A stretch of DNA of 64,000 nt from Candidatus Iainarchaeum sp. (GTDB taxonomy: Archaea > Iainarchaeota > Iainarchaeia > Iainarchaeales > JACQJH01): assembly GCA_016205145.1 (NCBI GenBank), contig JACQJH010000001.1, forward strand, positions 195,501 through 259,500. Reading direction: 5' to 3'. Shown here in pieces: positions 12,603 through 62,368 of this stretch (positions are counted from its first letter, which is position 1; every line of letters begins with the position of its first letter). The notes beneath the pieces were generated by a model, which was given only the letters and a program-made list of their open reading frames with translations, did not search any database and was not told the DNA's origin. The position numbers were made by a program, and so were the translations under genes.

Positions 12603-12722
12603 CTCGCCGTCATCGCCCGGCGGGTGCGAAACCAAGGCCTTCGTTGCAAAATCTTGGATTTTGCGACGTGCCCAGAATCTTTGGATTCTGGGGCATCACT
12701 GTTGTGAAAGACCGAGTGAGCT
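12603..12722 (+). repeat. Intergenic H1'-H2 element with module B in the H2 loop
   Basis: CGCCGTCATCGCCCGGCGGG TGCGAAACCAAGGCCTTCG [TTGCAAAATCTTGGATTTTGCGACGTGCCCAGAATCTTTGGATTCTGGGGCATCAC] TGTTGTGAAAGACCGAGTGAGC. Confidence 0.75.
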
Positions 12723-15213: not shown

Positions 15214-15273
15214 CGGCGGTTTCGTCCGCCGGGTCCGAAACCAAGGCGTATTGCTGATGCAATACGCCGAGTA
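15214..15273 (+). repeat. Intergenic H1-H2 element without insertion
   Basis: CGGCGGTTTCGTCCGCCGGG TCCGAAACCAAGGCGTATTGCTGATGCAATACGCCGAGTA. The first 40 nt are identical to the tRNA-Lys trailer. Confidence 0.8.
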
Positions 15274-15341
15274 TGCCAGCATATGATGCAAAAGTGCACA
15301 CTTGGCTTGTATTTGTGCCTGCAACCGGAATCGTTTTTCTT

Positions 15342-20608: not shown

Positions 20609-21097
20609 GTGGTTTGCATGAACAGGCAAACGCTTTTCAGGCTCGCTGCTTCAATCGCAATCTGCGGGCTTGCCGGCGCAGTCGGCTCAATCTTCACGTT
20701 TCCCGCAATCGCTTCGTGGTATGCGTCAATCAACAAGCCTTACTTCACTCCGCCGAACTGGGTTTTCGGCCCGGTTTGGACAGCGCTTTTCCTGCTCATG
20801 GGCATAGCGCTTTTCCTTGTGTGGGAAAAAGGCTTTCAGGAAAAGGAAAACAAGTTCGCGGTAAAGGTTTTCGGCGCACAGCTCGCCTTGAACGTTTTGT
20901 GGTCACTGCTTTTCTTCGGCCTGCACAACCCTTTCCTAGCAATGATTGAAATCGTTGCGCTCTGGCTGGCGATTGCCGCGACAACCATTCTGTTCAGCCG
21001 CATCGACAGGCGCGCGGCTTTGCTGCTGCTGCCTTACCTTGCGTGGGTTTCATTTGCGGCGTTCCTCAACTATTCGGTCTGGCTTTTGAACGCCTGA
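20609..21097 (+). CDS. tspO: TspO/MBR family tryptophan-rich sensory protein
   Basis: 162 aa with five TM helices and conserved Trp-rich blocks (PNWVFGPVWTALFLLMG...LAWVSFAAFLNYSVW). Confidence 0.85.
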   Translation: MVCMNRQTLFRLAASIAICGLAGAVGSIFTFPAIASWYASINKPYFTPPNWVFGPVWTALFLLMGIALFLVWEKGFQEKENKFAVKVFGAQLALNVLWSLLFFGLHNPFLAMIEIVALWLAIAATTILFSRIDRRAALLLLPYLAWVSFAAFLNYSVWLLNA

Positions 21098-21126
21098 AAA
21101 AAGCAGGTTTACTCGGCGTGTCGCGC

Positions 21127-21463
21127 AGCGGCACGCCTTAATCCCGACGCAGGGGGCTCCGCCCCCTTGCAAACCCCTGAAACATTTACCGCTACTTACT
21201 CGGCGGTTCACAACGTGAACCGCCTTGGTTTCGGCACACGCGCCCGAAAGCGCGTTGTCCTTTGTTAATGCAAAAGCAGATGGGTACGGCGCAACAGCGA
21301 AATATCCGTCGTCGAGCCCGCTTGTGAAATCATCGCCATCAGGCGCAGCGCTATGCGAGCAAAGCGAGCGCAGGGGTTGCACCCCTTGCGAACCCTGCAA
21401 AGCATGCGTGGTGTTCCGCAGCAGCGCGAACACCACAAAGCGCACCAGCCGGGCGTGACGGCT
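21127..21463 (-). repeat. tRNA-Asp 3' trailer: two consecutive hairpin cassettes (about 340 nt)
   Basis: First unit: AAGCCGTCACGCCCGGCTGG ... GGGGTGCAACCCC TGCG ... GGGCTCGACGACGGATATTTCGCTG...GTACCC. Second unit: CCGAAACCAAGGCGGTTCACGTTGTGAACCGCCGAGTAAG ... GGGGGCGGAGCCCCC TGCG TCGGGATTAAGGCGTGCCGCTGCGCGACACGCCGAGTAAACC. Confidence 0.75.
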
Positions 21464-21625
21464 TCGCCCGCACCGGGAGTCGGACCCGGCCCACGGCCTC
21501 GCTGCATTGCAGTACTCCATAAAAGAAACTTTTCTTTCTTTTTGGGGTAAAGCACTTTTTCTTTCTTCGCAAGAAAGAAAAAGGGCTTCGACAGGGCCGT
21601 ATCCTAGCCGATAGACCATACGGGC
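21464..21625 (-). tRNA. tRNA-Asp(GTC) with a ~90-nt intron at the canonical 37/38 position (introns 21499..21588)
   Basis: The minus-strand 5' exon GCCCGTATGGTCTATCGGCTAGGATACGGCCCTGTCG runs through acceptor, D-arm and anticodon stem CGGCC with loop CTGTCG. The 3' exon A-GGCCG-TGGG-CCGGG-TCCGACT-CCCGG-TGCGGGC-G pairs perfectly in the anticodon and acceptor stems. The D-stem has two G-U pairs and the T-loop has C at position 55, so it may be diverged. Confidence 0.55.
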
Positions 21626-27954: not shown

Positions 27955-28506
27955 TTGGTTTATCATGGTGGTTTGTTGGACATACTGAAGGCTTTGGCCA
28001 ACTCCAACCGGCGCAACATGGTCCAGATTCTCCTCAAAAAGGAAACCCACATTGCCGCGCTCGCAAGGGAATTGAACATTTCCAATCCGGTTGCATTGAA
28101 GCACGCGCGCATTCTTGAGGATAACGGCCTGATTGAACGGGAAAAAGCGGGGAACACGCACATACTGCACATCCGCAAGGACGCGCTCAAGAAAATACGG
28201 CTGGCATCGGAGCTTTTTGAAAAGCCAATTTCTTTCAGCGTCGCGAAAGGCACTTTGCTTTTGGACGCGCTTTCAAAGGTCGATGGCCTCGAGATCGAGA
28301 ACACGAAACAGGGCGCGTTCATCAAGGCAATTGACGGCAAGGAAGGCTACTTTGTCTTTGAAATCAACGGCAAGTTTCCGACAAAGCCGATCGAGGAAAT
28401 CGAAATTTCCGGCAGGACGGAAATCGAGTTGAAGCGCCTTCTGCCCGTCATCGGAAAAAAAATCGTTTTCGAAACAGCCGGTTCCGTCCGGCTGGTCCGG
28501 GACTAA
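27955..28506 (+). CDS. ArsR-family winged-helix transcriptional regulator with C-terminal extension
   Basis: HTH region MVQILLKKETHIAALARELNISNPVALKHARILEDNGLIEREKAGNTHIL. Confidence 0.7.
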   Translation: MVYHGGLLDILKALANSNRRNMVQILLKKETHIAALARELNISNPVALKHARILEDNGLIEREKAGNTHILHIRKDALKKIRLASELFEKPISFSVAKGTLLLDALSKVDGLEIENTKQGAFIKAIDGKEGYFVFEINGKFPTKPIEEIEISGRTEIELKRLLPVIGKKIVFETAGSVRLVRD

Positions 28507-28638
28507 GGCGTATCGTTGCAAAATCTTGGATTTTGCGACGTGCCCAGAATCTGTGGATTCTGGTGCATGCTTACGCAATACGCCGAGTAATTCTATTCCG
28601 CATTTCGGGGTTTTACGCGGGGGTGTCCCATGTGTTCA
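28503..28638 (+). repeat. Intergenic H2 element with module B in the loop, plus a degenerate spacer-H3
   Basis: AAGGCGTATCG [TTGCAAAATCTTGGATTTTGCGACGTGCCCAGAATCTGTGGATTCTGGTGCATGC] TTACGCAATACGCCGAGTAATTCTATTCCGCATTTCGGGGTTTTACGCGGGGGTGTCCC. Lies between the convergent ArsR and PLP-enzyme genes. Confidence 0.75.
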
Positions 28639-33816: not shown

Positions 33817-34140
33817 AATTTAAAAGCATATATTAGGGGGCACAATTTAAAAATTGTGTAATAATTCCCTCCTCCCTGATTTGCACAGGGGATCTCACCG
33901 TTGCCGCTTTTTTCGCGGCGCAACAGCGTTCTTTCGAACCTGCTGCCCAGCCATTCAAGGCAGTGCACAAGAGCGTGCACGAAAATCTACAGCGGTGCGT
34001 GTTAGCTACTACACCAAGGAGGGCTCGGCATGCTGCCGAGCGTGCAGCCTTGTGGTATCGCTGACGCGATACCACGCGTGCCCGCCCAAAACAGTTCCTG
34101 CCGGCTAATTATTTGTTTCACTCAATCGTTTTAAATGTTT

Positions 34141-35483: not shown

Positions 35484-35529
35484 GCTCTCACCTTGTAAAA
35501 ATAAGTTTCTGGTGGTTAAAAATCCACAT

Positions 35530-35660
35530 GCTTACTCGGCGTTTCACAACGCAGGGGCCTTTGCCCCTTGCAAACCCCCGAAATATTTGTTGTGTCCTAC
35601 TCGGCGTGTCGCATCAGCGGCACGCCTTGGTTTCGGACCCGGCGGACGAAACCGCCGAGA
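35530..35660 (-). repeat. tRNA-Lys 3' trailer: modular GC-rich hairpin cassette (H1-H2-spacer-H3-TGCG-H4)
   Basis: Reads on the minus strand directly after the discriminator: H1 CGGCGGTTTCGTCCGCCG; H2 TCCGAAACCAAGGCGTG...CACGCCGAGTAGG; spacer ACAACAAATATTTCGGGGG; H3 GGGGCAAAGGCCCC; then TGCG and a half-H4 ending GCCGAGTAAGC. Confidence 0.8.
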
Positions 35661-35734
35661 CGAGCCCGGAGGGATTTGAACCCTCGACACGCGGATTAAG
35701 AGTCCGCTGCTCTACCAGGCTGAGCTACGGGCCC
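35661..35734 (-). tRNA. tRNA-Lys(CTT)
   Basis: Minus strand GGGCCCGTAGCTCAGCCTGGTAGAGCAGCGGACTCTTAATCCGCGTGTCGAGGGTTCAAATCCCTCCGGGCTCG folds into a perfect cloverleaf with anticodon loop CTCTTAA. Confidence 0.9.
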
Positions 35735-35912
35735 AATTAGGGCGGTTAAATTTCGCTGGTCATTAAACTTGTTATTAATTCACTTATGCCCACTGATTTT
35801 AAACTTTTGTCAATGGGCTATTGGTCTTTTGGGGTTCGTGTTGGGCATGTGCGGTATCGGCGGTAGCGAAGATACCACAAACAGCACTGGCTTTTGCGTG
35901 ATGGCTTGCCCG

Positions 35913-36084
35913 GCGTATTGCGATACGCAATACGCCTTGGTTCCGCACGCAGGGGGCTCTGCCCCCTCGCACGCCCCCGAAACATTTACTACGATCACTC
36001 GGCGTATTGCGATTAGCAATACGCCTTTGTTCGCACCAGCCGGGCGTTCGGCTATGCCCACTGATTTTAAACTTTGCAGTGCCA
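35913..36084 (-). repeat. tRNA-Thr(TGT) 3' trailer: full hairpin cassette, same architecture
   Basis: H1 AGCCGAACGCCCGGCT; H2 TGCGAACAAAGGCGTATTGCTAATCGCAATACGCCGAGTG; spacer GTAGTAAATGTTTCGGGGGC; H3 GGGGGCAGAGCCCCC; TGCG; H4 TGCGGAACCAAGGCGTATTGCGTATCGCAATACGCCGGGCAAGCC. A 25-nt block (CCCACTGATTTTAAACTTT) is shared with the region upstream of tRNA-Lys, so the two tRNA-plus-trailer units look like a tandem duplication. Confidence 0.8.
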
Positions 36085-36158
36085 AGCCTTGGGAGGGATT
36101 TGAACCCTCGACCAGCAGTTTACAAAACTGCGGCTCTACCAGGCTGAGCTACCAAGGC
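36085..36158 (-). tRNA. tRNA-Thr(TGT)
   Basis: Minus strand GCCTTGGTAGCTCAGCCTGGTAGAGCCGCAGTTTTGTAAACTGCTGGTCGAGGGTTCAAATCCCTCCCAAGGCT forms a cloverleaf with anticodon loop TTTGTAA. Confidence 0.9.
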
Positions 36159-36183
36159 GGCTGTAGAATTGTTGTTTGGGCAA

Positions 36184-41271: not shown

Positions 41272-41276
41272 ATCGC

Positions 41277-41420
41277 CGTCATCGCCCGGAGCCGTCACGT
41301 CCGGCTGATACGTGCGGCACGTAAAGTGCCGCTGCCTCGCTGTTGCTCGGAACCGGCGGGTGCGACGTTGAGGATTCTCACTGCATTCGAATCCTCTGCC
41401 TGCTTAATTAGTTTTTTTGC
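41277..41420 (+). repeat. Variant nested hairpin element downstream of hppA
   Basis: TCGCCGTCATCGCCCGG [AGCCGTCACGTCCGGCTG ATACGTGCGGCACGTAAAGTGCCGC ...] CGGCGGGTGCGAC GTTGAGGATTCTCACTGCATTCGAATCCTC: an H1' hairpin split by an inserted H1-like hairpin, followed by a B-like hairpin. Confidence 0.6.
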
Positions 41421-41590
41421 TCGTAGAATTTGTGGAACTTTGTGTGCAGAATGCCTTCGCCTTGTTCAGTCTTTCAGTCATTCCGGTTCAATTCCTGATG
41501 GCAATGGGCCTTTTGCAGTTCGCCACAGCCATGCCTGGCGCAACAATCGCGTTCCCGGTTTACTTTCCCAGAAACGCAAAAAATTAGGAA

Positions 41591-41736
41591 TGCCCCGGCC
41601 GGGATTCGAACCCGGGTCGCGGCCTCACCCCGCTCTTGAATTTTTTGGAAAATCCTTGAGAGGGCCGAGTGCTTTCGGCAACAGCTGCTTTTTTTTATAA
41701 AAACAAACCGTTTTAGCCGGACTACACCACCGGGGC
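41591..41736 (-). tRNA. tRNA-Glu(CTC) carrying two introns (about 40 nt in the D-loop plus about 31 nt at 37/38)
   Basis: Exon 1 GCCCCGGTGGTGTAGTCCGGCTAAA, exon 2 CACTCGGCCCTCTCA, exon 3 AGGCCGCGACCCGGGTTCGAATCCCGGCCGGGGCA. Once spliced it matches the archaeal tRNA-Glu/Gln scaffold (D-arm GTGTAGTCCGGC, T-arm CCGGGTTCGAATCCCGG). The anticodon stem CGGCC/GGCCG is perfect. Confidence 0.65.
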
Positions 41737-42498
41737 ACTGCAGAATTTTTTGAACCTGTTTATGTGCTTTTTGTTGCTGAACCCGATTTCAGTGAAATAA
41801 CGCAGGACTTCTTTAGAATCTCCCATTGAGCACTGCATTGTATTCCTGTCCTTCTTTTGGGTCCATTTAGATACTCTGTAGCCCAATATTTTAAATGCCT
41901 TTGTTATGCTGCTTTGGATTGTAGGCGATGCCGTGGCGAACCAGATTGTGGGCGTTTTGTGCCTGCGCGTTTTCGGGTAAACGCTTCCGTCAGTGTCAAT
42001 CAATCCCCTGACACAGGCTTTAAGGTAACCGCTTTTTCCAAGAACCCAGCAGGGAATTGCCGCGCCATTCGTGGTTTTATTGCCGTTTTTTATGCCAAAA
42101 TGCATCAGCGTGTGCACCAAATTTTTGCTTTGCTTGAATATGACGACAGCGTTTCCGGTTTTTGGAAATTTTATGCTGAATTCGGTTCCAAACACTTTTT
42201 TGAACAGGCCCGAAGTATAATTTGTCAGATAATCAAAATCGTTCCCGCGATGGCCTATAATTCTTATTTGGTAAATGCTTTTTTCTTTTATAACCTGGCA
42301 GTTTCCGTCGCCAAGCATTATGCCGATAATTTCCGCAAGCTCCGCGCTTTTCTTTTTTGCAAGCAATTTCGGTTTCATCGGCAAGAATTTGCCGTTCTTC
42401 CGCGGCTGCAGCCGGCAATTACCCATAATGTACTGTTGTTTTTGTGGACAAAAGGGGTTTGCCAAGTGGCTTTCCCCTGATTCTTGATTTGGCCTCAC
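41722..42498 (-). CDS. Free-standing LAGLIDADG-family homing endonuclease (two LAGLIDADG motifs)
   Basis: Motif 1 AEIIGIMLGDGN and motif 2 RGLIDTDGSV are separated by about 100 aa, the arrangement of single-chain LAGLIDADG enzymes. The 3' end overlaps the 5' end of tRNA-Glu by about 15 nt. Confidence 0.75.
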   Translation of the reverse strand: MRPNQESGESHLANPFCPQKQQYIMGNCRLQPRKNGKFLPMKPKLLAKKKSAELAEIIGIMLGDGNCQVIKEKSIYQIRIIGHRGNDFDYLTNYTSGLFKKVFGTEFSIKFPKTGNAVVIFKQSKNLVHTLMHFGIKNGNKTTNGAAIPCWVLGKSGYLKACVRGLIDTDGSVYPKTRRHKTPTIWFATASPTIQSSITKAFKILGYRVSKWTQKKDRNTMQCSMGDSKEVLRYFTEIGFSNKKHINRFKKFCSAPVV

Positions 42499-45427: not shown

Positions 45428-45504
45428 GCTTTTCCAAAAAGCCCCGGCTGGGAAAATTTAATAACTGTTCGAGGTTTTAGTCAATAAACGAAGGCCGATG
45501 ATGA

Positions 45505-45625
45505 CCAGGCTGAGATTTGAGAGCCGCTTTCGTCCGGCTGGTTCGACGCCCCATGCCAATTTCATTCGCATGGGGCTGCGCGCTGTTGCGCGGGAACTGC
45601 CTGAAAGCGCTTGATGAAGAATCGT
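45505..45625. repeat. Variant D/E-like hairpin element between DUF4258-like gene and asd
   Basis: AGCCGCTTTCGTCCGGCTGG TTCGACG CCCCATGCCAATTTCATTCGCATGGGG CTGCGCGCTGTTGCGCGGG. Confidence 0.55.
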
Positions 45626-52280: not shown

Positions 52281-53555
52281 TTATTCCAAATCCCAAAGCT
52301 CTTTGAGCGCGTCAAGCCTGACTGTTTTCTGTTCGCCGGTTTCAAGGTTTTTGACTGCAAGCTCTTTTTTCTGCAGTTCGTCTTCGCCGGCAATAATCGC
52401 GAATTTGATACCCTGCTTGCTTGCGAATTCAAGGTTTTTTGAAATGCCCCTTCCAACCAAATCAATGTCAGTGTTCAGGCCCAGCCTTCTCATTTCCTGC
52501 ACGATTTTAAGGCATTCTTTTTGCGTTTTTCCGATCGGAATGACAAAGAATTTCACCGGGTTTTCTACGCCGAGCTTTTCTTCGACGACATCAAGGAGCC
52601 TGTCGATTCCAAAAGAAATGCCGATTGCCGGTGTAGGCGAACCGCCATAGCTTTCAATGAGATTGTCATATCGGCCGCCCCCGCCGCAGGAAATTCCCGC
52701 ACTTGAAACCTCGAAAACGTTTCCAGTGTAATATTCCAATCCGCGTGCCAGGCTAAGGTCGACTTTTACTTTTTTTGACAGGCCGTTTTCTTCAAGCAAA
52801 TCCAATAGTTCTTTGAGTTCCTTGAACCCGTCTTTTTCTTTCACGTCCTTGGGCAGGCCTTCGAAATCGTTTTTCTTGAGCGTTTCAATGATCTTGTCGG
52901 AAATGCCTTTTTGTTCCAATTCCTTCCTGACTTCTTCTTCGCCGATTTTTTCCAGTTTGTCCAGGCTCCTGAAACAGTCCTTGATTTGGCGTTCTTCCAC
53001 GCCATTCGCCTGCGCGACGGCTTCGAGCAGTTTTCTGTTATTCAGCCTTATGTAGAAATCAACGTTTATTTCTGAAAAAAATTCGGCTGCAAGCGCAATC
53101 AGTTCAAAGTCAGCGAAAACGCTTTTCACTCCGATGATGTCGGCATCCGCCTGTGTAAACTCGCGATACCTTTTTGCGCCCGGCCTGTCATACCGGTAAA
53201 CCCTTTCGATCTGGTAGCGCTTGAACGGTTTCGGCAGCTGCGGGTTTGTTGCTATGACACGTGCCAATGGAACCGTCAGGTCGAAGCGCAGGCCAAGCTC
53301 TCTCTCGGACTTGTCCTTGAAGTAGTAGATTTCTTCCTTGATTGCCTCGCCGCCAGAGCCTTTCTTTGCAAGCAAGGCGAAGTCTTCCACGACGGGCGTC
53401 TGCATTGGCTGGAAACCGTATTTTTCAAAGATGCGCCTGGCTAAACCTTCGAGGAAAAGTTTTTTGCGCGCCTGTTCGGGCAGGATGTCGCGCATTCCCC
53501 TTATCGCCTGGAATTTTTCTTCAGCCATGCAATTCACTTTCAGATTTCCTGTCAA
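52281..53555 (-). CDS. hisS: Histidyl-tRNA synthetase
   Basis: Class II aaRS motifs and HisRS-specific blocks (FQAIRGMRDILP, FKRYQIERVYRYDRP, GGGRYDNL). Confidence 0.9.
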   Translation of the reverse strand: MTGNLKVNCMAEEKFQAIRGMRDILPEQARKKLFLEGLARRIFEKYGFQPMQTPVVEDFALLAKKGSGGEAIKEEIYYFKDKSERELGLRFDLTVPLARVIATNPQLPKPFKRYQIERVYRYDRPGAKRYREFTQADADIIGVKSVFADFELIALAAEFFSEINVDFYIRLNNRKLLEAVAQANGVEERQIKDCFRSLDKLEKIGEEEVRKELEQKGISDKIIETLKKNDFEGLPKDVKEKDGFKELKELLDLLEENGLSKKVKVDLSLARGLEYYTGNVFEVSSAGISCGGGGRYDNLIESYGGSPTPAIGISFGIDRLLDVVEEKLGVENPVKFFVIPIGKTQKECLKIVQEMRRLGLNTDIDLVGRGISKNLEFASKQGIKFAIIAGEDELQKKELAVKNLETGEQKTVRLDALKELWDLE

Positions 53556-53617
53556 AATCCCATAAAAGGGCTATGGTTTATAGCCGCCCGCTTCATTCCG
53601 TGGCATTGTCCAAACTT

Positions 53618-54265
53618 TTATTCCGAACGCGCTGGCTTTCTGACGTGGAATACTCTTGTCGGATAAGTTCCCGGAATAGGTTTTGTGTTTTCCGTGATTA
53701 TTTCAAATCCTGCGGCTTTGAGTTCGCTATGCCAGGTGTTTATCTCTTTTTGTCCGCCTATTTGGATGAGCATGTTGAATTTGGCTTCCCCGCCCGGCCT
53801 GAGTATTCGGTATAATTCGGCAAAGGCTGTGCTTTTGGGCGTTGCGTGTGCTATGCCGAAATGCGAGTAAACAAAGTCGAAGTAATTGTCTGGGCGGCGC
53901 GTGTTGTGCGCGTGCGCAACATGCCATAAAACGTTTTCTTGTCCGCGCCATTCCGGGGCGCGCTTTAAGCTGAGGCCATGTGCTTCCATTTCGGGGTATT
54001 CTCTGGCAAGTTGCATGATGCTTGTTCCTTCTTTACAGCCTAAATCAAGGACCCTGATTTTTCTGTCAGGCGTTGCTTGGTGAATCCTTCTTATGTCCTC
54101 GATATTAAACCCCAGATTTTGGTAAATTGTTGGCAGGCCGGTTTTGCTCACCGACCACCTGCACAGGGGCCTGTTTCCTTCGTAAAGTTTGATTATGTCT
54201 CTGAGTCTTCGGCCCACTTTTGCCCTATCTTCAGGGGATTCGGGTTTTCTATGGCCCGGTTCCAA
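53618..54265 (-). CDS. Class I SAM-dependent methyltransferase (Methyltransf_11-like)
   Basis: Motif I VLDLGCKEGTS and motif II/III spacing in a 215-aa protein. Confidence 0.75.
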   Translation of the reverse strand: MEPGHRKPESPEDRAKVGRRLRDIIKLYEGNRPLCRWSVSKTGLPTIYQNLGFNIEDIRRIHQATPDRKIRVLDLGCKEGTSIMQLAREYPEMEAHGLSLKRAPEWRGQENVLWHVAHAHNTRRPDNYFDFVYSHFGIAHATPKSTAFAELYRILRPGGEAKFNMLIQIGGQKEINTWHSELKAAGFEIITENTKPIPGTYPTRVFHVRKPARSE

Positions 54266-54333
54266 AAAGACACCTCATTCCAAATCCCACCGCTCTTTTA
54301 GTTCGTCGAGTTTGACTGTTTTTTGTTCGCCAT

Positions 54334-54716
54334 TTACTTTTTTGCTTTTTTTGCCTCATTCATTTTCGCTTTTGCTTTAAGGATTTGCCCTATCTCCGCG
54401 GCCGGCGCTTTTTGGTCGAACCTGATTTGAATGGTTTTTTTTCCGGTCACATAACCTTTTTCTTCGAGCGCTTTGCGGTCTTTACTTTGAAGCGCGAACG
54501 CCAGGCCGAAGCCGGCGTGGCTCTTGAATGCGGCAAACCCGGCAAGAAGGCCCTGGTATTTGTAGAATGGCACGCCCCAGCTGATGCTTTCCTCCGCCTT
54601 TGGCACGGCTGATTTGATTATTTTCCTGATTTCCTTGAGCGTCGGCTGCGCTTCTATGCCTGCGCCGGCAATGTACTCGTCGACGTTTTTTGCGCTGTAA
54701 TTTTTCACTATTCCAC
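54334..54716 (-). CDS. DUF1801 (YdhG/YjbR-like) domain protein
   Basis: C-terminal 125 aa of track ORF 54334..54993 ([16 protein letters not shown]...[28 protein letters not shown]). The upstream part of that ORF overlaps hisG in another frame. The likely start is a GTG near 54716. Confidence 0.5.
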
Positions 54717-55604
54717 GACCTTGTTCAAGGGAAACTCGACTATGCCTTCCGCGCCGGCACCCTTCAGTTTCGGAATGAGCGTCCTGACGTCGTCTATTTT
54801 GACGATTGTGAGAACGTCGAACCAGCCTTCCTTGGAAAGCTTTGAAACCGTTGGATTGTTCAATGATGGCAGGACTTTGAGGACTTTTTGCAGGTTTTTT
54901 TCCTGCACGTTCATCATCAACCCCGCAAGGGTTTGCGCCGCGATTGCGCCTTTGAGCAGGGTTGCGATTTCGTCGATTTTCTTTCTCTTCCACAAATCCT
55001 TTGCCGCGCCTTTGTTTGCAATCAGTTTCGTGTTGCTTTCCATGAGCGTTTCGACAATGCGCAGGCCGTTCGCGCGCAAACTGCTTCCGGTTTCAGTCAC
55101 TTCAACGATTGCGTCGGCAAGCGTCGGCGGCTTGACTTCGGTTGCGCCCCATGAAAATTCCACTTCGGCTTTGACGTTGTTTTTTGCAAGCCATTCCTTT
55201 GTGAATCCCACAAGTTCGGTTGCGATCCTCTTTCCCTGCAGGTCCTTCACGCCTTTGATTTTCGAGTCGTTCGGCACAGCCAGAACCCATTTGACCCTTC
55301 CAAGGCCGGATTTTGCGTAAACAAGGTCCGCGATTTCGTCAACGCTTGACTTGTTTTCAAGAATCCAGTCCTTTCCCGTCAAGCCAAGGTCGATTGCGCC
55401 CTGTTCGACGTAACGCGACATTTCCTGCGCCCTGATGAGCACGCACTCTATTTCATCGTCGTTTATTTTCGGGTAATACGAGCGCTCTTCCGCGCGGATG
55501 TCATAACCGGCTTTCTTGAACAATTCTATTGTCGAATTCTGCAGGCTTCCCTTGGGGATGCCAAGCTTGAGTTTTTTGCCGCTTCCATCTTCTTTGCCTT
55601 TCAT
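54708..55604 (-). CDS. hisG: ATP phosphoribosyltransferase (long form with regulatory domain)
   Basis: 298 aa ([23 protein letters not shown] ... [13 protein letters not shown]) plus a C-terminal ACT-like region. Confidence 0.9.
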
Positions 55605-56650
55605 TTCAATTCCTCCGCTTTCCTGAAAAAACAGCTCCTCTTGCCCGTGTGACAGGCAACATTGCCTTCCTGCTTCACTTTAAGAAGAATCGCGTCGTTG
55701 TCGCAGTCAAATCTCACTTCCCTGACAATCTGGAAGTTTCCGGAAGTTTCGCCTTTCACCCATAATTTTTGCCTGCTTCTGCTCCAATAGCAGGCCTTTC
55801 CTTCTTTCAGGGTGCGGCGAAGGCTTTCCCTGTTCATGTATGCAAGCATAAGCACTTCTCCCGTATTCCAGTCCTGTGCGATTGCAGGCAGCAGGCCGTT
55901 TCCCTTTTCAAAGTCAAGTTCATCGGGCAGGATGTCGGATAATTTTATCTTGCTAGTGTACAATGACATGCCCAATGCGCAGTCCACGCCGATGCCTTCA
56001 AGCCTGCGCGCCTCTTCAAGCGAGGCAATCCCGCCGGCGGCAATGATGCGGTTTTTCGTTGCCTTGCGAAGCCTTTGCACCGCTTCAAAGTCGATGCCTT
56101 TCATGAGGCCCTCTTTTTCCACGCACGTGAACAGGAATGCAGAGCACAGGCCTTCAAATTCTTTCGCCTTTTGCAAATAATCCGCCCCGGTTTTTTCCTG
56201 CCAGCCTTTCACAACAACCTCGCCTTTCCATGAATCCAATGCAACAATGATTTTTTCCTTTCCAATTTGCGCGCCAAGCTTTTGCAGGAATTCCTTGTTT
56301 GCGGCACTGCCGATGATGACGCGCTTTGCGCCAGCGCCGATGAGCGCTTTGGCTTTTTCCACGCTGTCGATTCCGCCGCCGGTGTTTGCATTCACGACAG
56401 AGCAGATTTTTTTGACGGTTGCGAGATTTGAGCCTATGCGTTTTGCCGCGTCCAAATCAATGACCTGCACTTCCCTGAAAGCGGAGAATTTTTCCGCGAA
56501 TTTTTCGGGAGCAGACGCTATGCGAATCTTCTCGGTTTTGCCCTGCTGCAGCTGGACAACTTTTCTGCCTTTCAAGTCAATGCTTGGCAACAACATTTTC
56601 ATTCCCTCACTACAATTCCCTTTTCTTTCAGGTATGCCTTGACTTTCCAC
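55601..56650 (-). CDS. hisA-hisI: Bifunctional fusion: ProFAR isomerase (HisA) + phosphoribosyl-AMP cyclohydrolase (HisI)
   Basis: The N-terminal ~240 aa are a HisA TIM barrel ([15 protein letters not shown] ... GGGIDS ... IAAGGIAS). The C-terminal ~105 aa are HisI ([50 protein letters not shown] ... [11 protein letters not shown] ... ACHTG). Confidence 0.8.
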
Positions 56651-57378
56651 ACCGGAAACTCGTTGAAATGGAAAATGCTTGCGGCAAGCGCGGCATCGGC
56701 CTTTCCTGTTTCAAATACATCCACAAAGCTTTCAAGGTTTCCCCCGCCCCCGCTTGCAATGACTGGAACGTTAACGCTTTCCGAAACCGCTTTTGTCAGT
56801 TCGAGGTCGAAGCCCTCTTTTGTTCCGTCGCGGTCCATGCTTGTCAGGAGGATTTCGCCTGCGCCAAGTTCAACCGCTTCTTTCGCCCATTCGAGGGCGT
56901 TTTTTCCCGTGAATTTGCGGCCGCCGTATTTCGAGCACTCCCACCAGACTTTTCCTTTCTCTTCCCTTTTTTTCGCGTCAATCGCCAGCACGACTGCCTG
57001 GTTGCCATACGCTTTTGCAATCTCCGAAATGAGGCGAGGCCTTTCCAGCGCGGCAGTGTTTATGCTTACCTTGTCCGCGCCTGCTTCGAACACACTTTTT
57101 GCGTCCGCCAGTGAGCGTATTCCGCCCCCGACAGTTAACGGCACGAAAACTTCCTGCGCGGTTTTTTCGATTACGTCAACCATTGTTTCTCTTCTCTCGG
57201 AACTTGCGGTGATGTCCAGAAAGACGATTTCGTCAGCGCCCTGCGCGTAATACGCTTCGGCCTGCTCCCACGGCACGCCGGCGTATTTTATTTCCTTGAA
57301 CTGGACTCCTTTGACGACTCTTCCTTGCGCGACCGAAAGGTCGCAGTCCAGACAGGGAATGATTCGTTTTGCGAGCAT
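56599..57378 (-). CDS. hisF: Imidazole glycerol phosphate synthase cyclase subunit
   Basis: 259 aa beginning [16 protein letters not shown], with HisF barrel motifs ([11 protein letters not shown] ... GGGIRS). Confidence 0.9.
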
Positions 57379-57390
57379 TTGAAACCAGTT

Positions 57391-57795
57391 TTATTCTCTA
57401 TTCATTAATTCAGTTTGAACGCGGGTGTACATTGTAATTAATCCATTTGCAATAATGTCCGTTGTGTGTTCGGGCTGTTCTGTCGTGCGTTCGTGTTCTA
57501 TTTCAATGAACCGGTTTATCCTTTCCATTGTGCTTTCAAGGACTTCCGTGGGAATGCTTGTGAGCGGCCTATTGCGTTCAACCAATCTTAGTGTCAGCCT
57601 TTCGAGTTGCTGGTCTGGGCCCAATCCGGTTTCCAGCAATTTTTGCAGTTCCGGAATCACATGTTGCTGGGCCGGCATATCCGTTCCGGGGACGGTATGT
57701 GTCGATTCTCTCACATCTTGCCCAAAATAACCCTGCGCTATATTCCGGAAACGTTCTTTAAGCCCTTCCGGGTGCGCCTCATGTCGTCTCTCCAT
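57391..57795 (-). CDS. Hypothetical 134-aa protein embedded in the his operon
   Basis: ORF between hisF and hisH on the same strand with short spacers. No similarity to HisE that I can recognise. Confidence 0.4.
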   Translation of the reverse strand: MERRHEAHPEGLKERFRNIAQGYFGQDVRESTHTVPGTDMPAQQHVIPELQKLLETGLGPDQQLERLTLRLVERNRPLTSIPTEVLESTMERINRFIEIEHERTTEQPEHTTDIIANGLITMYTRVQTELMNRE

Positions 57796-57804
57796 AGTAT
57801 CACC

Positions 57805-58407
57805 TCAAATTTCAACAAAATTCTCCAGCACCTTAAGTCCAGCGGCTCCGCTTTTTTCCGGGTGGAATTGCACGGCAAAAACGTTGTCTTTTTCAACAGC
57901 GGAACAGTATTTTCCGCCGTAATCGGTTTCGCCAGAGACGATGTCCTTGTCGAACGGCTTGGCATAATAGCCGTGCACGAAATAAAAGAACGAATTGTCG
58001 GGAACATCCTCGAGCAGCGCGCTTTCCTTTGCCTTTTCGACCTGGTTCCAGCCGATCTGGGGAACTTTCAGGTTTTTTCCTTCAAATTTTTCAACCGTGC
58101 CCTGCAAAACTTTCAGGCCTTCGCTTTCAGGGCTTTCCGCGCTTTCCTCGAACAGCGCCTGGAGGCCGATGCAGATGCCGAGGAAAGGCTTTCCTTCCTC
58201 GATTGCCCATTCGATTGCGTAGTCCAGTTTTTTTTCGCGCAGTTCGCGCATTGCCTCGCCGAAATTGCCCACGCCGGGAAAAACGACCTTGCTCGCTTTT
58301 CCCACCTGTTCAGGAGTTTTCGCAATGACTGCCTTTTCGCCGATTTTTCGGAAGGCGTTGCGGACGCTCTGCAAATTGCCCCTGCCATAATCAATGATTG
58401 CAATCAT
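57805..58407 (-). CDS. hisH: Imidazole glycerol phosphate synthase glutaminase subunit
   Basis: Class I GATase triad context (GICIGLQ ... HPE) in a 200-aa protein. Confidence 0.9.
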   Translation of the reverse strand: MIAIIDYGRGNLQSVRNAFRKIGEKAVIAKTPEQVGKASKVVFPGVGNFGEAMRELREKKLDYAIEWAIEEGKPFLGICIGLQALFEESAESPESEGLKVLQGTVEKFEGKNLKVPQIGWNQVEKAKESALLEDVPDNSFFYFVHGYYAKPFDKDIVSGETDYGGKYCSAVEKDNVFAVQFHPEKSGAAGLKVLENFVEI

Positions 58408-59036
58408 AGCATTCCCTTGGTGCTCGGCAAAAACTTCTGCCGCCTGTCAAATTCAACCGCGCAACGCAACGCGCGCGCGAAAGCCTTGAACAGCGCTTCA
58501 ACCAGGTGGTGTGCATTCTTTCCGTAAACAACTTTGACGTGGATGTTTGCCTTCAGCTCGTTTGCCACTGCCTGGAAGAATTCTTCCACAAGCTCGGTCG
58601 GAAACCCGCCGATGCGGTCGAGCGGAAACTTTGCGTCGAACACAAGCTTTGGCCTGCCGCTCAAATCAATCGCGCAGAACGCAAGGCTTTCATCCATTGG
58701 CACGTATTCCCAGCCGTACCTTGCAATGCCCTTTTTGTCGCCAAGCGCTTTAGCTATTGCCTGTCCGAGGACAATGCCGGTATCCTCGACAGTGTGGTGC
58801 AAATCCACTTCCAAGTCGCCTTTTGCCTCAAGCGAAACGTCGATGAGGCTGTGCTTGGAGAAAAGTTCGAGCATGTGGTTGAAGAACCCGATTCCGGTTT
58901 CAATTTCATACCTGCCTTCGCCGTCAAGGTTTACCGAGGCTTTGATTTTGGTTTCAGTGGTGTTCCGTTCAATCTCCGCTTTCCTCACGAATGATTTCGC
59001 CTTTTTTTCGTTTGCCTTTCCTTTGCCTTCGCTCAT
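58404..59036 (-). CDS. hisB: Imidazoleglycerol-phosphate dehydratase (monofunctional)
   Basis: IGPD motifs (GIGFFNHMLE ... DLHHTVEDTGI). Confidence 0.9.
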   Translation of the reverse strand: MSEGKGKANEKKAKSFVRKAEIERNTTETKIKASVNLDGEGRYEIETGIGFFNHMLELFSKHSLIDVSLEAKGDLEVDLHHTVEDTGIVLGQAIAKALGDKKGIARYGWEYVPMDESLAFCAIDLSGRPKLVFDAKFPLDRIGGFPTELVEEFFQAVANELKANIHVKVVYGKNAHHLVEALFKAFARALRCAVEFDRRQKFLPSTKGML

Positions 59037-60124
59037 TTCGTTTCACCCAAAACCTTTTCCAGCGCGGAGCAGAATTTTTTCATCTGTTCTGGCGTGCCGA
59101 TGCTGATGCGGATGCAGCCTTCCAGTCTCTCATAACCGCTCCTGTCCCTTACAAGGAAGCCTTTTTCCTTAAGCTTTTCGGCGATTGCTTTGGCGTTTTT
59201 GCCAAAGCGTGCGACGAGAAAATTCGACTTGCTCGGAAAGCGCTTCACGCCTTTTTCGTCAAGGAACTTTTCAAGAATTGCGCGCCCCGCTTCAACCTGT
59301 TTCACATAATCCTGCATGTAAGCCGGGTCCTTCAGCGCTTCCGTTGCCGCGAGCGCGCTCAAAGCGGTGATGCTGTAAGGCGACTTCGCCTTTTTCAGCG
59401 TTGAAATGATTTTTTCGTTTCCCAGAGCGTATCCGATGCGCATTCCGCCGAGGCCCATTGCCTTTGAAAAGGTTTTGAGCACGACAAGGTTGTCGAACTC
59501 TCCAATCCTGCCGGCAACGGTTTCTTTCGTGAATTCCGAGTATGCTTCGTCGACGATTGCCAGGCAGCCTTCCGCCCGCGCGGCCCTGATGATTTCGATG
59601 AGGTCTTTTTCCGGAATTTCGGTGGCAGTCGGATTGTTGGGGTTGCAGAGAATGACTGCCCGGCTGCCCTTGATTTCCGCGAGCACTTTTTGCGTCGGAA
59701 ATGAGAGGTCTTCATTGTACAGCGGCTTTGCAATTTTCGCCCCTTGCAGTTCAGCGTAAAAGTAAAACATGGCAAAGCTCGGAGTCGGAATCACGATCTT
59801 TCCGTTGCCCACAAAGCATTCAATGCATCCGCGGATGGCCTCATCCGAGCCGTTGAAGGGCACGGCGTTTTCCGGCTTCGCGTTGTTGTAATCCGCAATC
59901 GCTTTTGTCAGCTCCGAGTATTCCGGATACGCGGACAGCCTTTCCGCTGAAACGTTTTTGATTGCCGTGAGAACGCGCGGGCTTGGGCCGAGAGTGTTTT
60001 CGTTGAAGTCAAGCCTCATTTTGCCCAGCCTGCTGGCTGTCGGAGGATTGTACGGCTTGAGCTTTTTCACATTGCCGGTTTCGGAAATCATTTCATTCAC
60101 TTCCCGCATGCTCCGGCTTTCCAA
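59033..60124 (-). CDS. hisC: Histidinol-phosphate aminotransferase
   Basis: Class II aminotransferase, 363 aa, with the PLP-Lys context FSKAMGLGGMRIGY. Confidence 0.9.
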   Translation of the reverse strand: MESRSMREVNEMISETGNVKKLKPYNPPTASRLGKMRLDFNENTLGPSPRVLTAIKNVSAERLSAYPEYSELTKAIADYNNAKPENAVPFNGSDEAIRGCIECFVGNGKIVIPTPSFAMFYFYAELQGAKIAKPLYNEDLSFPTQKVLAEIKGSRAVILCNPNNPTATEIPEKDLIEIIRAARAEGCLAIVDEAYSEFTKETVAGRIGEFDNLVVLKTFSKAMGLGGMRIGYALGNEKIISTLKKAKSPYSITALSALAATEALKDPAYMQDYVKQVEAGRAILEKFLDEKGVKRFPSKSNFLVARFGKNAKAIAEKLKEKGFLVRDRSGYERLEGCIRISIGTPEQMKKFCSALEKVLGETK

Positions 60125-62303
60125 AAAGCTTTGGCAGTTCGTTTATGTCTTTCAACACGGCGTCCGCGCCTTTTTCCAAATAAAATTTTTTGCCCGGCGA
60201 GAACGCGCCCGTCAAAACCATTGCGCAAAAATTGCCTTTCAGCGGGCCGCCCGCGTTTTTCACCATTTCAAGGTCGTCAATCATGTCACCCACATACAAA
60301 ACCTTTTCGGCATTGAGCCTTTTTTTCATCCATTCCAGCGGCGCGGCGTTTGGTTTCAACTTTCCGCCGGTTTCGCTTGCGGTTTCATCCGAAAAAATGT
60401 TTTCTTTTGCAATCGCCGCTGCAAGGCCGCATCTTTCAAGGCAAAGCATTGCTTCGTTGAACGTGCGCCCGGTTATCACGCCGAGCTTTTTGCCGTTGTT
60501 TTTCAGCCACTCGACGGTTTTCCTTGAAACAATCATTTTTTCGTTTTCGCAAAGCCCTTTTTTCACGCCCAATCTTGCCGGTTTGCCGAAAAACTCCGTG
60601 AAACGCCTTTCGCCGAGGTATAGTTCCTCGAACGCGTCCATGATTTTTTCGCGGTCGTATTCGCGTGCAATGCTTTCCCACTTTTGGCCGGCAATCTGCC
60701 TTGCAGCCCTTTCTGCGCCTTCAAAGCCTTTGTCCAAGCCGATTTTCGGGGCGAATTCTTCCCCGCTTACGCGAAAGCCGTTTTTTTGCAGCAACGCAAC
60801 CAGGCTTAAAGCATAGGCAACGTGCCAGTCGTTGTTGAATCCCCCCAAGCGCTTGAACAAAGCGGTTTTCTGCACCGGAAACCTTTTTCCGTACAAAACT
60901 TCGACCGCTTTCACTGTTGCAATCCTGTAAGTGTTGCTTACATCTGCCAGCACGCCGTCAATGTCCAAAACAATCGCGTCAACGCCAGAAAACCCGCTTC
61001 CGGGCGCGCTTTTTCCGCGGTCCAAGCGTATTTCAACGCTTTTTTTGTGCGCTTCAAGGCCCTCGGAATCAGCCATTGCACCAATCGTTTTTTGCAGGCC
61101 TTTCAGGCCTTTTTCAGAGATTTTCTGGAACGCGATGACCTTGACAAAGTCCCTTGCCGACAGGCCAGCGCGTTGTTTTGCCGTTCCGCCGGTTGGCAGG
61201 ACGTGATTTGTGCCGGAACAGTAGTCTCCCGCGGCTACCGGGCTGAAGTCTCCGAGAAAAACGCTTCCAGCCGCGCTTATTTGCGGCAGAAGCCTTTCCG
61301 CCCTGCCGAAAAGCACCAAGTGTTCCGGGCCGATTTGGTTCACGATGCCCGCGCAGTCCTGCAGATCCCTTGCAATGACAACAGCCGAATTGGTTTCAAG
61401 CGCCCTGCGTGCTGTTTCGGCATTCTTTGCTGTTTCAAGCTGAACCGAAAGCGCGGCTTTGGCTTTTTCTGCGAGCGCCCTGTCCGGCGTGACAAGAATG
61501 CAGACGCTGTTTGAGTCGTGCTCGGCCTGCGTCAAAAGCTCGGCCGCAACGATTTTCGCGTCGGCTTTCGAGTCCGCTACAACGCACACCTCGCTCGGCC
61601 CGGCAACAAAATCAATGGAAACCTGGCCGAAAACAAGCCTTTTCGCGGTTGCGACAAAAACGTTTCCCGGCCCGGCAATCTTTTGCACGCGCGGCACGGT
61701 TTTGGTGCCGAATGCCATTGCGGCAATTGCCTGGCTTCCGCCCAGAGTGAAAATCCTGTCCACGCCGGCGATGTCGGCTGCGACAAGCACGAGCGGGTTA
61801 GTGCCATCCTTTTTCGGCGGAGTGCACATCACAATCTCTTTCACGCCCGCGGCTTTCGCAGGCAAGGCATTCATCAAAACGCTTGAAGGCAAAGGATACC
61901 TGCCCGCTGGAACATAAATGCCGACAACGTCCAATGGCCTGACAATTTCCCCAACAACCACGCCTTGCGCATTTTCAGTTTTCCATTCTTTCGGCAGCTG
62001 CCTTTTTGCAAAAGCAAGAATGTTTTTTTTCGCGAGCTTCAAGGCTTCAACCTGTGCCTTCGAAACTTTGGAATAAGCCGCCTTAATCTCCGCACTGCTC
62101 ACTTCCATGCTTTCAGGGGAAAGCCGCACGCCATCGAATTTTTCCGAAAACGCAATCAGCGCGGAATCGCCTTTTTCCCTGACTTCCGCGATAATGCTTC
62201 GGACGGTTTCTTCGACATTCTTGTCCGGCGCCTCCAGCCCGGCAAGGAACGCTTCAAGCTCTCCGGGTTTTTCGGCGGTTATTTCTTTCAGCATGTAGAC
62301 CAC
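60093..62303 (-). CDS. hisD: Fusion: histidinol dehydrogenase (HisD) + C-terminal HAD-superfamily phosphatase domain (candidate histidinol-phosphatase)
   Basis: The N-terminal ~430 aa are HisD (zinc/NAD motifs QAEHDS ... DYCSGTNHVLPT). The C-terminal ~300 aa carry HAD motifs I (VLDIDGVLAD), II (VITGR) and III/IV (YVGDMIDDLEMV). Confidence 0.85.
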   Translation of the reverse strand: MVYMLKEITAEKPGELEAFLAGLEAPDKNVEETVRSIIAEVREKGDSALIAFSEKFDGVRLSPESMEVSSAEIKAAYSKVSKAQVEALKLAKKNILAFAKRQLPKEWKTENAQGVVVGEIVRPLDVVGIYVPAGRYPLPSSVLMNALPAKAAGVKEIVMCTPPKKDGTNPLVLVAADIAGVDRIFTLGGSQAIAAMAFGTKTVPRVQKIAGPGNVFVATAKRLVFGQVSIDFVAGPSEVCVVADSKADAKIVAAELLTQAEHDSNSVCILVTPDRALAEKAKAALSVQLETAKNAETARRALETNSAVVIARDLQDCAGIVNQIGPEHLVLFGRAERLLPQISAAGSVFLGDFSPVAAGDYCSGTNHVLPTGGTAKQRAGLSARDFVKVIAFQKISEKGLKGLQKTIGAMADSEGLEAHKKSVEIRLDRGKSAPGSGFSGVDAIVLDIDGVLADVSNTYRIATVKAVEVLYGKRFPVQKTALFKRLGGFNNDWHVAYALSLVALLQKNGFRVSGEEFAPKIGLDKGFEGAERAARQIAGQKWESIAREYDREKIMDAFEELYLGERRFTEFFGKPARLGVKKGLCENEKMIVSRKTVEWLKNNGKKLGVITGRTFNEAMLCLERCGLAAAIAKENIFSDETASETGGKLKPNAAPLEWMKKRLNAEKVLYVGDMIDDLEMVKNAGGPLKGNFCAMVLTGAFSPGKKFYLEKGADAVLKDINELPKLFGKPEHAGSE

Positions 62304-62305
62304 GT

Positions 62306-62368
62306 GCCAAGTAAAGGCTTACTTGGCATATTGCGCAGCAATATGCCTTGGTTTCGCACCCGCCGGGC
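62306..62368 (-). repeat. tRNA-His 3' trailer: H1'-H2 hairpins between tRNA-His and the hisD start
   Basis: CGCCGTCATCGCCCGGCGGG TGCGAAACCAAGGCATATTGCTGCGCAATATGCCAAGTAAG. The same 35-nt start CTCGCCGTCATCGCCCGGCGGGTGCGAAACCAAGGC recurs at 12601..12636 on the plus strand. Confidence 0.75.

Follow-up and report, generated by a model that had tools for sequence, protein, structure and literature searches.

The closest described counterparts of the element treated here are REP sequences (repetitive extragenic palindromes), bacterial interspersed mosaic elements (BIMEs) and REPINs of Escherichia coli and Pseudomonas. In classical REPs the palindrome has a GTAG or CGTC tag at its foot, and these REPs are possibly mobilized by REP-associated tyrosine transposases (RAYTs; PMC3733652), and under a permissive definition REP-like palindromes have been reported broadly in archaea (PMC12306157). 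The element in question is a family of hairpin cassettes in a 64,000-nucleotide stretch of the DPANN archaeon Candidatus Iainarchaeum sp. (contig JACQJH010000001.1, positions 195,501 to 259,500; hereafter the window), where cassettes adjoin the ends of tRNA genes and recur away from them. Like REPs, BIMEs and REPINs, they are short extragenic palindromes, rich in GC and flanked by conserved unpaired sequence, that form mosaic clusters with other short motifs; the placement in transcribed intergenic and 3' regions, the compensatory stem variants, the strain-variable number of units and the restriction of families to a lineage are likewise shared. They differ in their archaeal (DPANN) host, in comprising several unrelated hairpin types, in nested loop insertion and in their exact juxtaposition to tRNA gene ends. 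The reading favored here, to which a probability of about one half is assigned, is that they are genus-restricted, REP/BIME-like mosaic GC-rich palindromic repeats that occupy the non-mature parts of transcription units and diversify by ectopic recombination, any function being generic and hairpin-based. The sites colonized lie between tRNAs and oligo-T runs, between tRNAs and the next gene, between promoters and tRNAs, and just past the stop codons of protein genes. Integron attC sites offer a further likeness, being imperfect palindromes in which structure rather than sequence is conserved and which have conserved flanking motifs; the cassettes, however, come with neither an integrase nor gene cassettes, and their flanks are not complementary R'/R'' boxes.

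Hairpin cassettes beside tRNA genes

The cassettes are built from hairpins of 16-25 nucleotides (nt; H1, H2/H4 and H3); REP palindromes measure 20-40 bp. A covariance model of the H1+H2 unit (R1) gives 12 strong matches in the window (E below 1e-9), all outside coding sequence, and weaker ones at 62600, 658, 45514 and 21396. The exact flank pattern matches three times in the window and never in 100 shuffles, and perfect hairpins of at least 8 base pairs (bp) number 32, compared with 6-19 in dinucleotide shuffles, most of them within cassettes or tRNA introns. An earlier note on this DNA had claimed a modular family tightly linked to tRNA 3' ends, and the model matches and shuffle tests show this family to be real. 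Relatives for comparison were found through neighboring proteins: L020 (~91% nucleotide identity), L030-L032 (~89-94%) and a species B represented by L027, L033 and L034 (~80-84% within genes).

The window's 11 tRNA genes (Lys, Thr(TGT), Thr(GGT), Leu, Arg, Cys, Trp, Asp, His and Tyr are represented) all lie on the minus strand. The cassettes behind them have the same sense and the order that the earlier note had described, H1-H2-spacer-H3-TGCG-H4, which is complete after tRNA-Thr, tRNA-Leu and in the distal part of the tRNA-Asp array, with H4 truncated after tRNA-Lys. Aligned, these four have a mean column identity of 71%. The full set of modules comprises H1, the H2/H4 type, H3, a TTGTGG type, a GGGTNCGAC-hairpin type and a 62-nt two-hairpin insert; the linkers that connect them are short and conserved.

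The cassette of tRNA-Lys(CTT) (tRNA 35659-35735, minus strand) begins 3 nt past the discriminator and occupies 35530-35657 on the same strand (H1 35640-35657, H2 35603-35626, H3 35553-35568, truncated H4 flank 35530-35545; R1 85.9 bits). Read on the minus strand, H1 is CGGCGG-TTTCGT-CCGCCG, followed by the linker GGTCCGAAACCAA and a perfect 10-bp H2 closed by GAGTAGG; the distal half consists of a spacer ending in TTTCGGGGG, H3 (GGGGC-AAAG-GCCCC), TGCG and a truncated second H2-type unit, after which comes a T5 run (35518-35522). The tRNA-Leu(CAG) cassette starts 1 nt past the discriminator (62889-63028, minus strand; H1 63011-63028, H2 62974-62997, H3 62924-62940, H4 62889-62909). The proposed start within 0-3 nt of the discriminator thus fits Lys and Leu; it fails for tRNA-Thr(TGT) (36085-36158, minus strand), where the cassette (35912-36053, minus strand; H1 36038-36053, H2 36001-36025, H3 35951-35967, H4 35912-35936) begins 31 nt past the tRNA. 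The gap holds a 22-nt BRE/TATA-like motif, AAAGTTTAAAATCAGTGGGCAT (36054-36075, minus strand), of which a second copy (35786-35807) completes the bracketing of a 246-nt Thr cassette block. With this motif also begins a stretch of ~70 nt upstream of tRNA-Lys, present in nearly identical form in species B, where a single copy stands upstream of tRNA-Lys and no tRNA-Thr is present. The direct repeat may reflect duplication of a promoter or else an att-like duplication. The spacer between Thr and Lys further contains a TTGTGG-type module (GTGGTATC...GATACCGC; 35851-35878, minus strand), the same type as found at 21408-21436, 34052-34075 and L027:651-700.

The cassette of tRNA-His(GTG) (tRNA 62378-62604, minus strand) spans 62306-62378 on that strand (H1 62361-62378, H2 62325-62347, last hairpin 62306-62327) and ends 12 nt upstream of the hisD ATG. 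Where the earlier note listed two copies at tRNA-Asp, the window has one tRNA-Asp(GTC) (21465-21625, minus strand), followed by two successive cassettes; a second tRNA-Asp called by ARAGORN is a tRNA-Tyr(GTA) (33866-34023, minus strand). The Asp trailer array runs for ~370 nt (21093-21463, minus strand), with H1 at 21447-21463, a TTGTGG hairpin at 21408-21436, an H3-like hairpin at 21372-21386 and a GGGCTCGAC unit at 21277-21319; its second unit is a full cassette (21115-21255, minus strand; H1 21238-21255, H2 21202-21224, H3 21151-21167, H4 21115-21137) followed by a T6 run. In this tRNA-Tyr, C1 pairs with G72 and a canonical intron of 85 nt lies at position 37/38; ARAGORN places the intron within the anticodon. 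Five tRNAs have no full 3' cassette: Trp, Cys, Thr(GGT) and Tyr are followed by T-rich runs, and Arg by an H1-like GC hairpin alone, 2 nt past the tRNA (63161-63176, minus strand). Distal hairpins stand 7-14 nt ahead of T5-T9 runs after Lys (in three lineages), tRNA-Gln (L012) and Asp, at L014 and in the copy at 41274 behind the gene for an H+-translocating pyrophosphatase (H+-PPase).

Reversed elements occur at tRNA 5' ends. The one at tRNA-His lies 3 nt from the tRNA (62608-62663, plus strand; H1 62608-62625, GGGTTCGAC, hairpin 62635-62663 with loop TTCGCTGCGCTCA; R1 23.8 bits), and that at tRNA-Tyr adjoins position 1 of the tRNA (34023-34075, plus strand; H1-like hairpin 34023-34041, TTGTGG hairpin 34052-34075). 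These elements mirror the 3' trailers, H1 always being the tRNA-proximal end on either side of the tRNA. Since all three lineages keep a TATA-like box, CATTTAAAAC, upstream of the element at tRNA-Tyr, this reversed element is most likely part of a 5' leader.

Free-standing copies all read on the plus strand. One lies downstream of rpoA'' and antisense to it (666-776; H1 666-683, GGGTTCGAC and a host hairpin GGGTA/TACCC with the 62-nt two-hairpin insert). Another, between two minus-strand genes (12605-12721), has a His-type H1 (12605-12622) and an H2 with the two-hairpin insert, and shares 38 identical nt with the tRNA-His trailer (62345-62382), including 6 nt of the tRNA end. An H1+H2 unit at 15214-15275 (R1 90.1 bits) is likewise placed between two minus-strand genes, and the copy at 28476-28629, between convergent genes, combines a Leu-type H1, an H2 with the two-hairpin insert and a degenerate spacer and H3. 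Three nt past the H+-PPase stop codon, the copy at 41274-41400 has a His-type H1 interrupted by a nested unit, then GGGTGCGAC, a hairpin at 41370-41400 and a T7 run; the last copy (45522-45592; R1 19.2 bits) consists of H1 (45522-45539), GGTTCGAC and hairpins at 45548-45576 and 45579-45592. The free-standing copies listed earlier are thus present, except that the one placed at 28503 begins at 28476, and the list had missed the two reversed elements and the H1-only hairpin behind tRNA-Arg. The 62-nt module sits in the loops of four host hairpins of two types (699, 12640 and 28513 in the window, and the L030 Tyr 5' site), in the equivalent position in each, just 3' of the 5' arm.

Several features adjoin these copies. 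A helix-turn-helix (HTH)/DUF4430 open reading frame (ORF; 27955-28506, plus strand) reads through H1 of the 28476 cassette and ends at a TAA from the linker variant GGGACTAAGGC, so that the repeat apparently supplies its last ~10 codons and stop. Just upstream of H1 of the 45522 copy is a C/D-box-like string, CCGATGATGACCAGGCTGAGA (45493-45515, plus strand), and beside the 664 copy a weak Rfam match to the C/D small RNA sR53 (771-849, minus strand; E=2.1).

Relative to transcription, copies are sense after tRNAs, after the H+-PPase gene and after the HTH gene, and antisense at 664, 12605, 15214 and 45522 (between or after minus-strand genes) and within the leaders of tRNA-His and tRNA-Tyr. GC skew is monotonic over the window, as in a single replichore, and both orientations occur within it, indicating that replication direction does not set orientation. 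The flanks, which had been described as conserved and single-stranded, are indeed conserved; because they occur in both orientations relative to transcription, however, they cannot be a common RNA recognition motif.

Perfect palindromes and module turnover

Pairing in the stems was counted over 16 units from the window and related loci. Standard pairs form in 95.2% of stem cells, compared with 78.0% after shuffling, and 11 of the 16 pairs (38 cells) are changed on both sides; none of 500 shuffles reaches the observed values for pairing and double changes, and slid-alignment controls fall to 29-46% paired. Pairing is therefore maintained, and the paired substitutions that had been noted between copies are confirmed. 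The conclusion drawn from them, namely that RNA secondary structure is under selection, unlike in ordinary repeats, is not supported, given the near absence of wobble pairs, the replacement of whole modules, the presence of both orientations and the absence of the family from other Diapherotrites. Only one of 249 cells is G-U, and the main non-pairs are A-C or C-A mismatches on the tRNA-sense strand (eight cells), several of which represent one inherited mismatch common to the Lys, L033 and Asp copies. Many changes were inherited or carried over by recombination, and between orthologous loci a large share of the stem differences reflects replacement of whole cassettes or modules rather than stepwise compensation. 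Judged by their sequences, the stems are perfect Watson-Crick palindromes nearly without wobble, as in DNA palindromes such as REPs, and differ in this from typical RNA helices. Without any selection on RNA, perfect palindromes can result from hairpin-templated correction of quasi-palindromes. In the cassettes, palindromy may be kept by selection for hairpins or by hairpin-templated repair. The linkers are strongly conserved and the stems variable; stem arms considered as guides have no target-like matches outside the family.

Orthologous loci give direct support to diversification and spread by ectopic recombination, comprising unequal exchange at repeated arms or flanks, conversion from locus to locus and nested insertion. 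In L030, tRNA-Thr is followed by H1+H2 only; the missing 89 nt span the H2 loop to the H4 5' arm, between two identical GGCGTATTGC arms, and, being bounded by two identical AAGGCGTATTGC arms, their loss is the exact product of an exchange. The Lys trailer of species B (L033/L034) has the same H1+H2 as the window, with one difference in 63 nt (98% identity), and no H3/H4; this 65-nt indel, absent in L033, is bounded by GCCGAGTA(A/G)G direct repeats (GCCGAGTAAG). The L030 Lys trailer is a Leu-type cassette, with an AGCCGG H1, the GGTTCGGAAC linker and the stem GGCGCATTGC. As this closer relative carries a Leu-type cassette while the more distant species B matches the window, the Lys trailer appears to have undergone ectopic conversion.

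Other sites show similar turnover. The site downstream of the H+-PPase gene in L020 has only an H1-like hairpin and GGGTGCGA, and lacks ~200 nt of the window's 41274 region, including the unit nested in H1. In L027, the cassettes after tRNA-Leu and tRNA-His are built of other modules between near-identical flanks, and the reversed element 5' of tRNA-His keeps its position and its loop with a fully swapped stem (GGGTAC versus GAGGGTTT). The tRNA-Tyr 5' site exists in three variants in three lineages (window, L030 and L033), of which L030 alone has the two-hairpin insert. Contigs of the source population break inside cassettes, as is expected for dispersed repeats. A cassette is nonetheless kept at all five tRNA boundaries compared between the window species and species B; together with the 98% identity of the Lys H1+H2 unit, this suggests some constraint.

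Beyond these relatives the family is not found. The covariance-model check that had been proposed in the earlier note recovers the 12 strong window copies and none in ~110 kb of other Diapherotrites, the locus of the complete AR10 genome and contigs with 74% PPase identity included. In more distant Diapherotrites, tRNAs are followed by plain T-rich runs, and since the cassettes are absent from these sister lineages they are not required for tRNA expression in general. Searched over the GTDB representatives (one genome per species), the exact flank pattern gives three chance bacterial matches and no true copy, and in the JGI metagenomes two true copies and 14 chance matches. Both true copies are from Ga0066639: in one, H1+H2 and then a T9 run come after tRNA-Gln, the stem being a further compensated variant (GGCGTACTGC/GCAGTACGCC), and the other is free-standing, with the stem GGCTTATTGC/GCAATAAGCC. 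Two IMG/VR scans yield chance matches only, in coding sequence of GC-rich phages, and hence no viral or plasmid copies. Scanned against Rfam with cmscan, both at the gathering threshold and with E up to 5, the whole window gives tRNA-related matches and the weak sR53 match, with nothing on the cassettes, and no description of such tRNA-flanking cassettes in archaea or DPANN was found in the literature; the earlier statement that no described archaeal family has this architecture is upheld. The family is thus most likely genus-restricted and not previously described.

Competing explanations and possible function

Assignment to REP/BIME-like repeats has several observations to answer. The stem feet have no GTAG or CGTC, CGTC being found only in the H1 loop and GTAG in the spacer away from the feet; alternating-orientation doublets are absent, H2 and H4 within a cassette being direct repeats; and no RAYT was found among the 40 window ORFs scanned with Pfam. 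Given the missing foot tag and the direct arrangement of the units, the family is not filed in a named REP family. The linkers GGTYCGRAACCAA, GAGTAAG and GTAGTAAATGTTTCGGGG are more conserved than a purely structural role needs, and the Lys H1+H2 unit is far closer between species than the neighboring genes (98% versus ~80-84%), hinting at constraint at the level of sequence. The exact juxtaposition to tRNA ends, at 0-3 nt, is more precise than passive accumulation predicts. Finally, all seven copies in the window that are not at a tRNA 3' end lie on the plus strand, for which a two-sided sign test gives ~1.6% if orientation is irrelevant. All of these weigh against the reading favored here.

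Part of this evidence would suit structured small RNAs derived from tRNA precursors, a family whose members would each be co-transcribed with a tRNA, freed by RNase Z so that H1 forms the 5' end, and stabilized by their hairpins, with free-standing copies as independent genes. The linkers, among them a T-loop-like GGUYCGAAACC and a CAA/GAGUAAG internal loop rich in purines, would then bind proteins or RNAs and the variable stems would be neutral spacers, in keeping with the strong conservation of the former and with the Lys identity across species. As counted for this explanation, all tRNA 3'-linked copies are sense, lie 0-3 nt past the discriminator and end before a T-run. Precedents exist in trailer RNAs such as the E. 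coli 3'ETS-leuZ and the dicistrons of tRNA and C/D box small RNA in Nanoarchaeum equitans and plants, in which a structured RNA lies directly 3' of a tRNA in the same transcription unit and release by RNase Z or RNase E is possible, as it would be here. The cassettes, in contrast, have no C/D or H/ACA boxes, occur as modules that are also inverted and away from tRNAs, and do not keep their content between close relatives, among which whole cassettes are swapped or halved. Their stems have virtually no G-U pairs, and in the reversed copies, found within tRNA leaders and at the 3' side of minus-strand genes, the linkers would be read as their complement. TATA-like boxes do lie 12-29 nt upstream of H1 at 664, 12597, 15214 and L014, and T5-T9 runs follow the sense strand of 12597, 41274, 62608 and L014, but the boxes are so near H1 that the predicted start sites would fall inside it. 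Similarly, RNAalifold proposes an enclosing helix, CCGAAAC/GUUUCGG, which shows no covariation and is broken in the Leu copy. The stem arms lack target-like matches, and the family is absent from sister lineages. A small RNA family is for these reasons considered unlikely.

The marks of C/D RNAs (C box RUGAUGA and D box CUGA with a k-turn) and of H/ACA RNAs (a pseudouridylation pocket and an ACA box) are absent: no Rfam snoRNA model matches the cassettes, whose stems are uninterrupted and have no internal pocket. Likewise, no curated covariance model of a known ribozyme or riboswitch matches them (cmscan, E up to 5). Four structural candidates were rejected: the H2 flanks as a k-turn, loop-E/bulged-G or bulge-helix-bulge motif (no 3-nt bulge with tandem G-A pairs, no bulges 4 bp apart); the two-hairpin insert as a hammerhead-like three-way junction (conserved core lacking, no Rfam match); the RNAalifold long-range helix, which is conserved in sequence and broken in the L027 copy as well; and a leader-trailer processing stem around tRNA-His, whose proximal bases fail to pair.

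An active non-autonomous mobile family is a similarly doubtful explanation. Its members would be mobilized in trans and home to structured DNA, namely tRNA gene boundaries, H1 first, and their own hairpin loops, leaving no terminal inverted repeats. This would account for the presence/absence polymorphisms among relatives, the equivalent position of the 62-nt module in four hairpins of two host types, the unit nested within H1 at 41274 and the H1-proximal mirror-image arrangement at tRNA-His together with the reversed tRNA-Tyr element; the 22-nt direct repeat bracketing the Thr block and the 38 nt shared by the 12605 copy and the tRNA-His trailer, with 6 nt of tRNA end, also point this way. 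The cassettes resemble MITEs (miniature transposable elements with inverted repeats) and PATEs, the latter derived from IS200/IS605 in haloarchaea, in being small, non-coding, intergenic, hairpin-rich and strain-polymorphic, and PATEs too have no terminal inverted repeats. They differ from MITEs and PATEs in lacking terminal inverted repeats, target duplications and a 5' target tetranucleotide, in having mixed orientation within one replichore and in having no TnpA or TnpB found in their vicinity. Neither end of the cassette (H1 ... GCCGAGTAAGC) is an inverted copy of the other; comparisons of filled and empty sites with L020, L030 and L033 reveal no target duplication, the 22-nt repeat around the Thr block being the sole exception; and each of the 19 copies inspected has a different sequence 5' of H1, so that no fixed target motif is apparent, such as the tetra- or pentanucleotide 3' of which PATEs insert, in one orientation relative to replication. 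The cassettes are accordingly neither MITEs nor PATEs. The Pfam scan of the 40 window ORFs found no transposase, integrase or HUH/Y1 gene, the IMG/VR scans found no viral or plasmid copies, and the indels between relatives are bounded by direct repeats internal to the family, as in homologous recombination or slippage.

The origin from a tRNA-derived short interspersed element or MITE that had been considered in the earlier note is not borne out. Besides the missing terminal repeats and target duplications, neither the Rfam tRNA model (E up to 5) nor ARAGORN recognizes the cassettes, leaving a tRNA-derived short interspersed element unsupported; the resemblance to tRNA is limited to an 11-nt GCCGGGTCCGA/T-loop-like motif that is not significant alone. 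A combined explanation, in which miniature elements home to structure (H1 first at tRNA boundaries, and into hairpin loops), are mobilized by some enzyme and have been co-opted as punctuation hairpins at RNase P and RNase Z sites, for example between tRNA-His and the his operon, is tentative and somewhat less probable than either mobility or small RNAs on their own. That the cassettes are composite terminators or attenuators of tRNA and operon transcripts, a hairpin acting together with downstream oligo-T, is improbable. In its favor, GAGTAAGC is found behind Lys, Gln and Asp, in each case with a T5-T9 run 6-8 nt further on, and the 3' ends of genes are where copies tend to cluster. Against it, hairpin and T-run stand 13-15 nt apart, unlike in a bacterial-type terminator; no T-run follows the Leu, His and Thr cassettes, behind which the next gene comes directly; copies also occur in 5' leaders; and archaeal intrinsic termination needs oligo-T tracts only.

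If REP/BIME-like repeats of this kind have a function, it is probably a generic one of hairpins, which would insulate the RNA and protect its ends where RNase P and RNase Z cut; the cassettes may also serve as trailer or termination structures, as proposed earlier. The tRNAs would be co-transcribed with their neighbors and then separated by RNase P and RNase Z, the H1 clamp adjoining the tRNA may keep flanking RNA from invading the acceptor stem, and after cleavage the neighboring RNA (e.g. the hisD mRNA) would retain a hairpin-capped end resistant to exonucleases. Such an effect would depend only on stable hairpins in whichever strand is transcribed; a guard that works either way round fits the mixed orientations. 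The tRNAs here lie between genes (tRNA-His, then the his operon; Thr and Lys, then a DUF2666 gene), as in mitochondrial tRNA punctuation, and cleavage by RNase P and RNase Z would yield separate transcripts; unlike in mitochondria, extra hairpin modules flank the tRNAs, and co-transcription is suggested by the lack of promoter space between genes. The distance from tRNA-His to the hisD start is only 84 nt, consisting entirely of cassette without an obvious TATA box, and the same arrangement is found in both species (window and L027).

Neighboring sequences and implications

The archaeal character of the window is apparent from its split RpoA and RpoB and its several intron-bearing tRNAs, and the nearest relatives of its H+-PPase are from other DPANN archaea; two of its proteins match those of a Candidatus Diapherotrites archaeon at 100% identity. 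The tRNA-Tyr intron is present also in L030 and L033 and holds GGTTCGAAAG and a CGCTGTTGCG hairpin resembling cassette modules. That of tRNA-His (about 62414-62566) is a 153-nt insertion at 37/38 with ~4.3 tandem copies of a 36-nt unit, AAACCTTTTCCAAAAAGGTTTGCGAAAAACCGCAAG, comprising two small hairpins (tandem repeat 62390-62568, minus strand); as the orthologous L027 tRNA-His is intronless, it was gained or expanded recently. The tRNA-Asp intron (89 nt) is AT-rich and has a 13-bp perfect hairpin, CTTTTTCTTTCTT/AAGAAAGAAAAAG. tRNA-Trp(CCA) (41590-41737, minus strand) contains at least one long insertion and is directly downstream of a 258-residue ORF with a LAGLIDADG_3 domain (41722-42498, minus strand).

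The histidine operon (52281-62604, minus strand) has tRNA-His directly upstream on the same strand and the order hisD-hisC-hisB-hisH-?-hisA-hisF/I-hisG, with genes for a methyltransferase and for histidyl-tRNA synthetase behind it. A highly conserved non-coding stretch that lies between the Leu cassette and tRNA-His (~62690-62860, minus strand; counterpart L027:745-930) contains a strong TATA box (GGTATTTAAACC), a 10-bp stem (GAGTTACTTC/GAAGTAACTC), AUGAAAA and CUGA motifs and an end hairpin (CCAGCC-CTCA-GGCTGG). No Rfam model matches it, and it is a candidate non-coding RNA of no known family.

The cassettes represent a known kind of genomic element, yet one in an unusual relation to tRNA ends, for which any function is putative. 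They serve as a warning that compensatory changes in short perfect hairpins alone do not show an RNA gene, and such repeats fragment metagenome assemblies of this lineage. If the assignment to REP/BIME-like repeats is true, this would be a well-resolved mosaic family in a DPANN archaeon, with turnover traceable module by module. It would provide a natural system for studying how palindromes stay perfectly paired, how they spread without an obvious transposase, and whether compact archaeal genomes use tRNA-adjacent hairpins to punctuate and protect co-transcribed RNAs.

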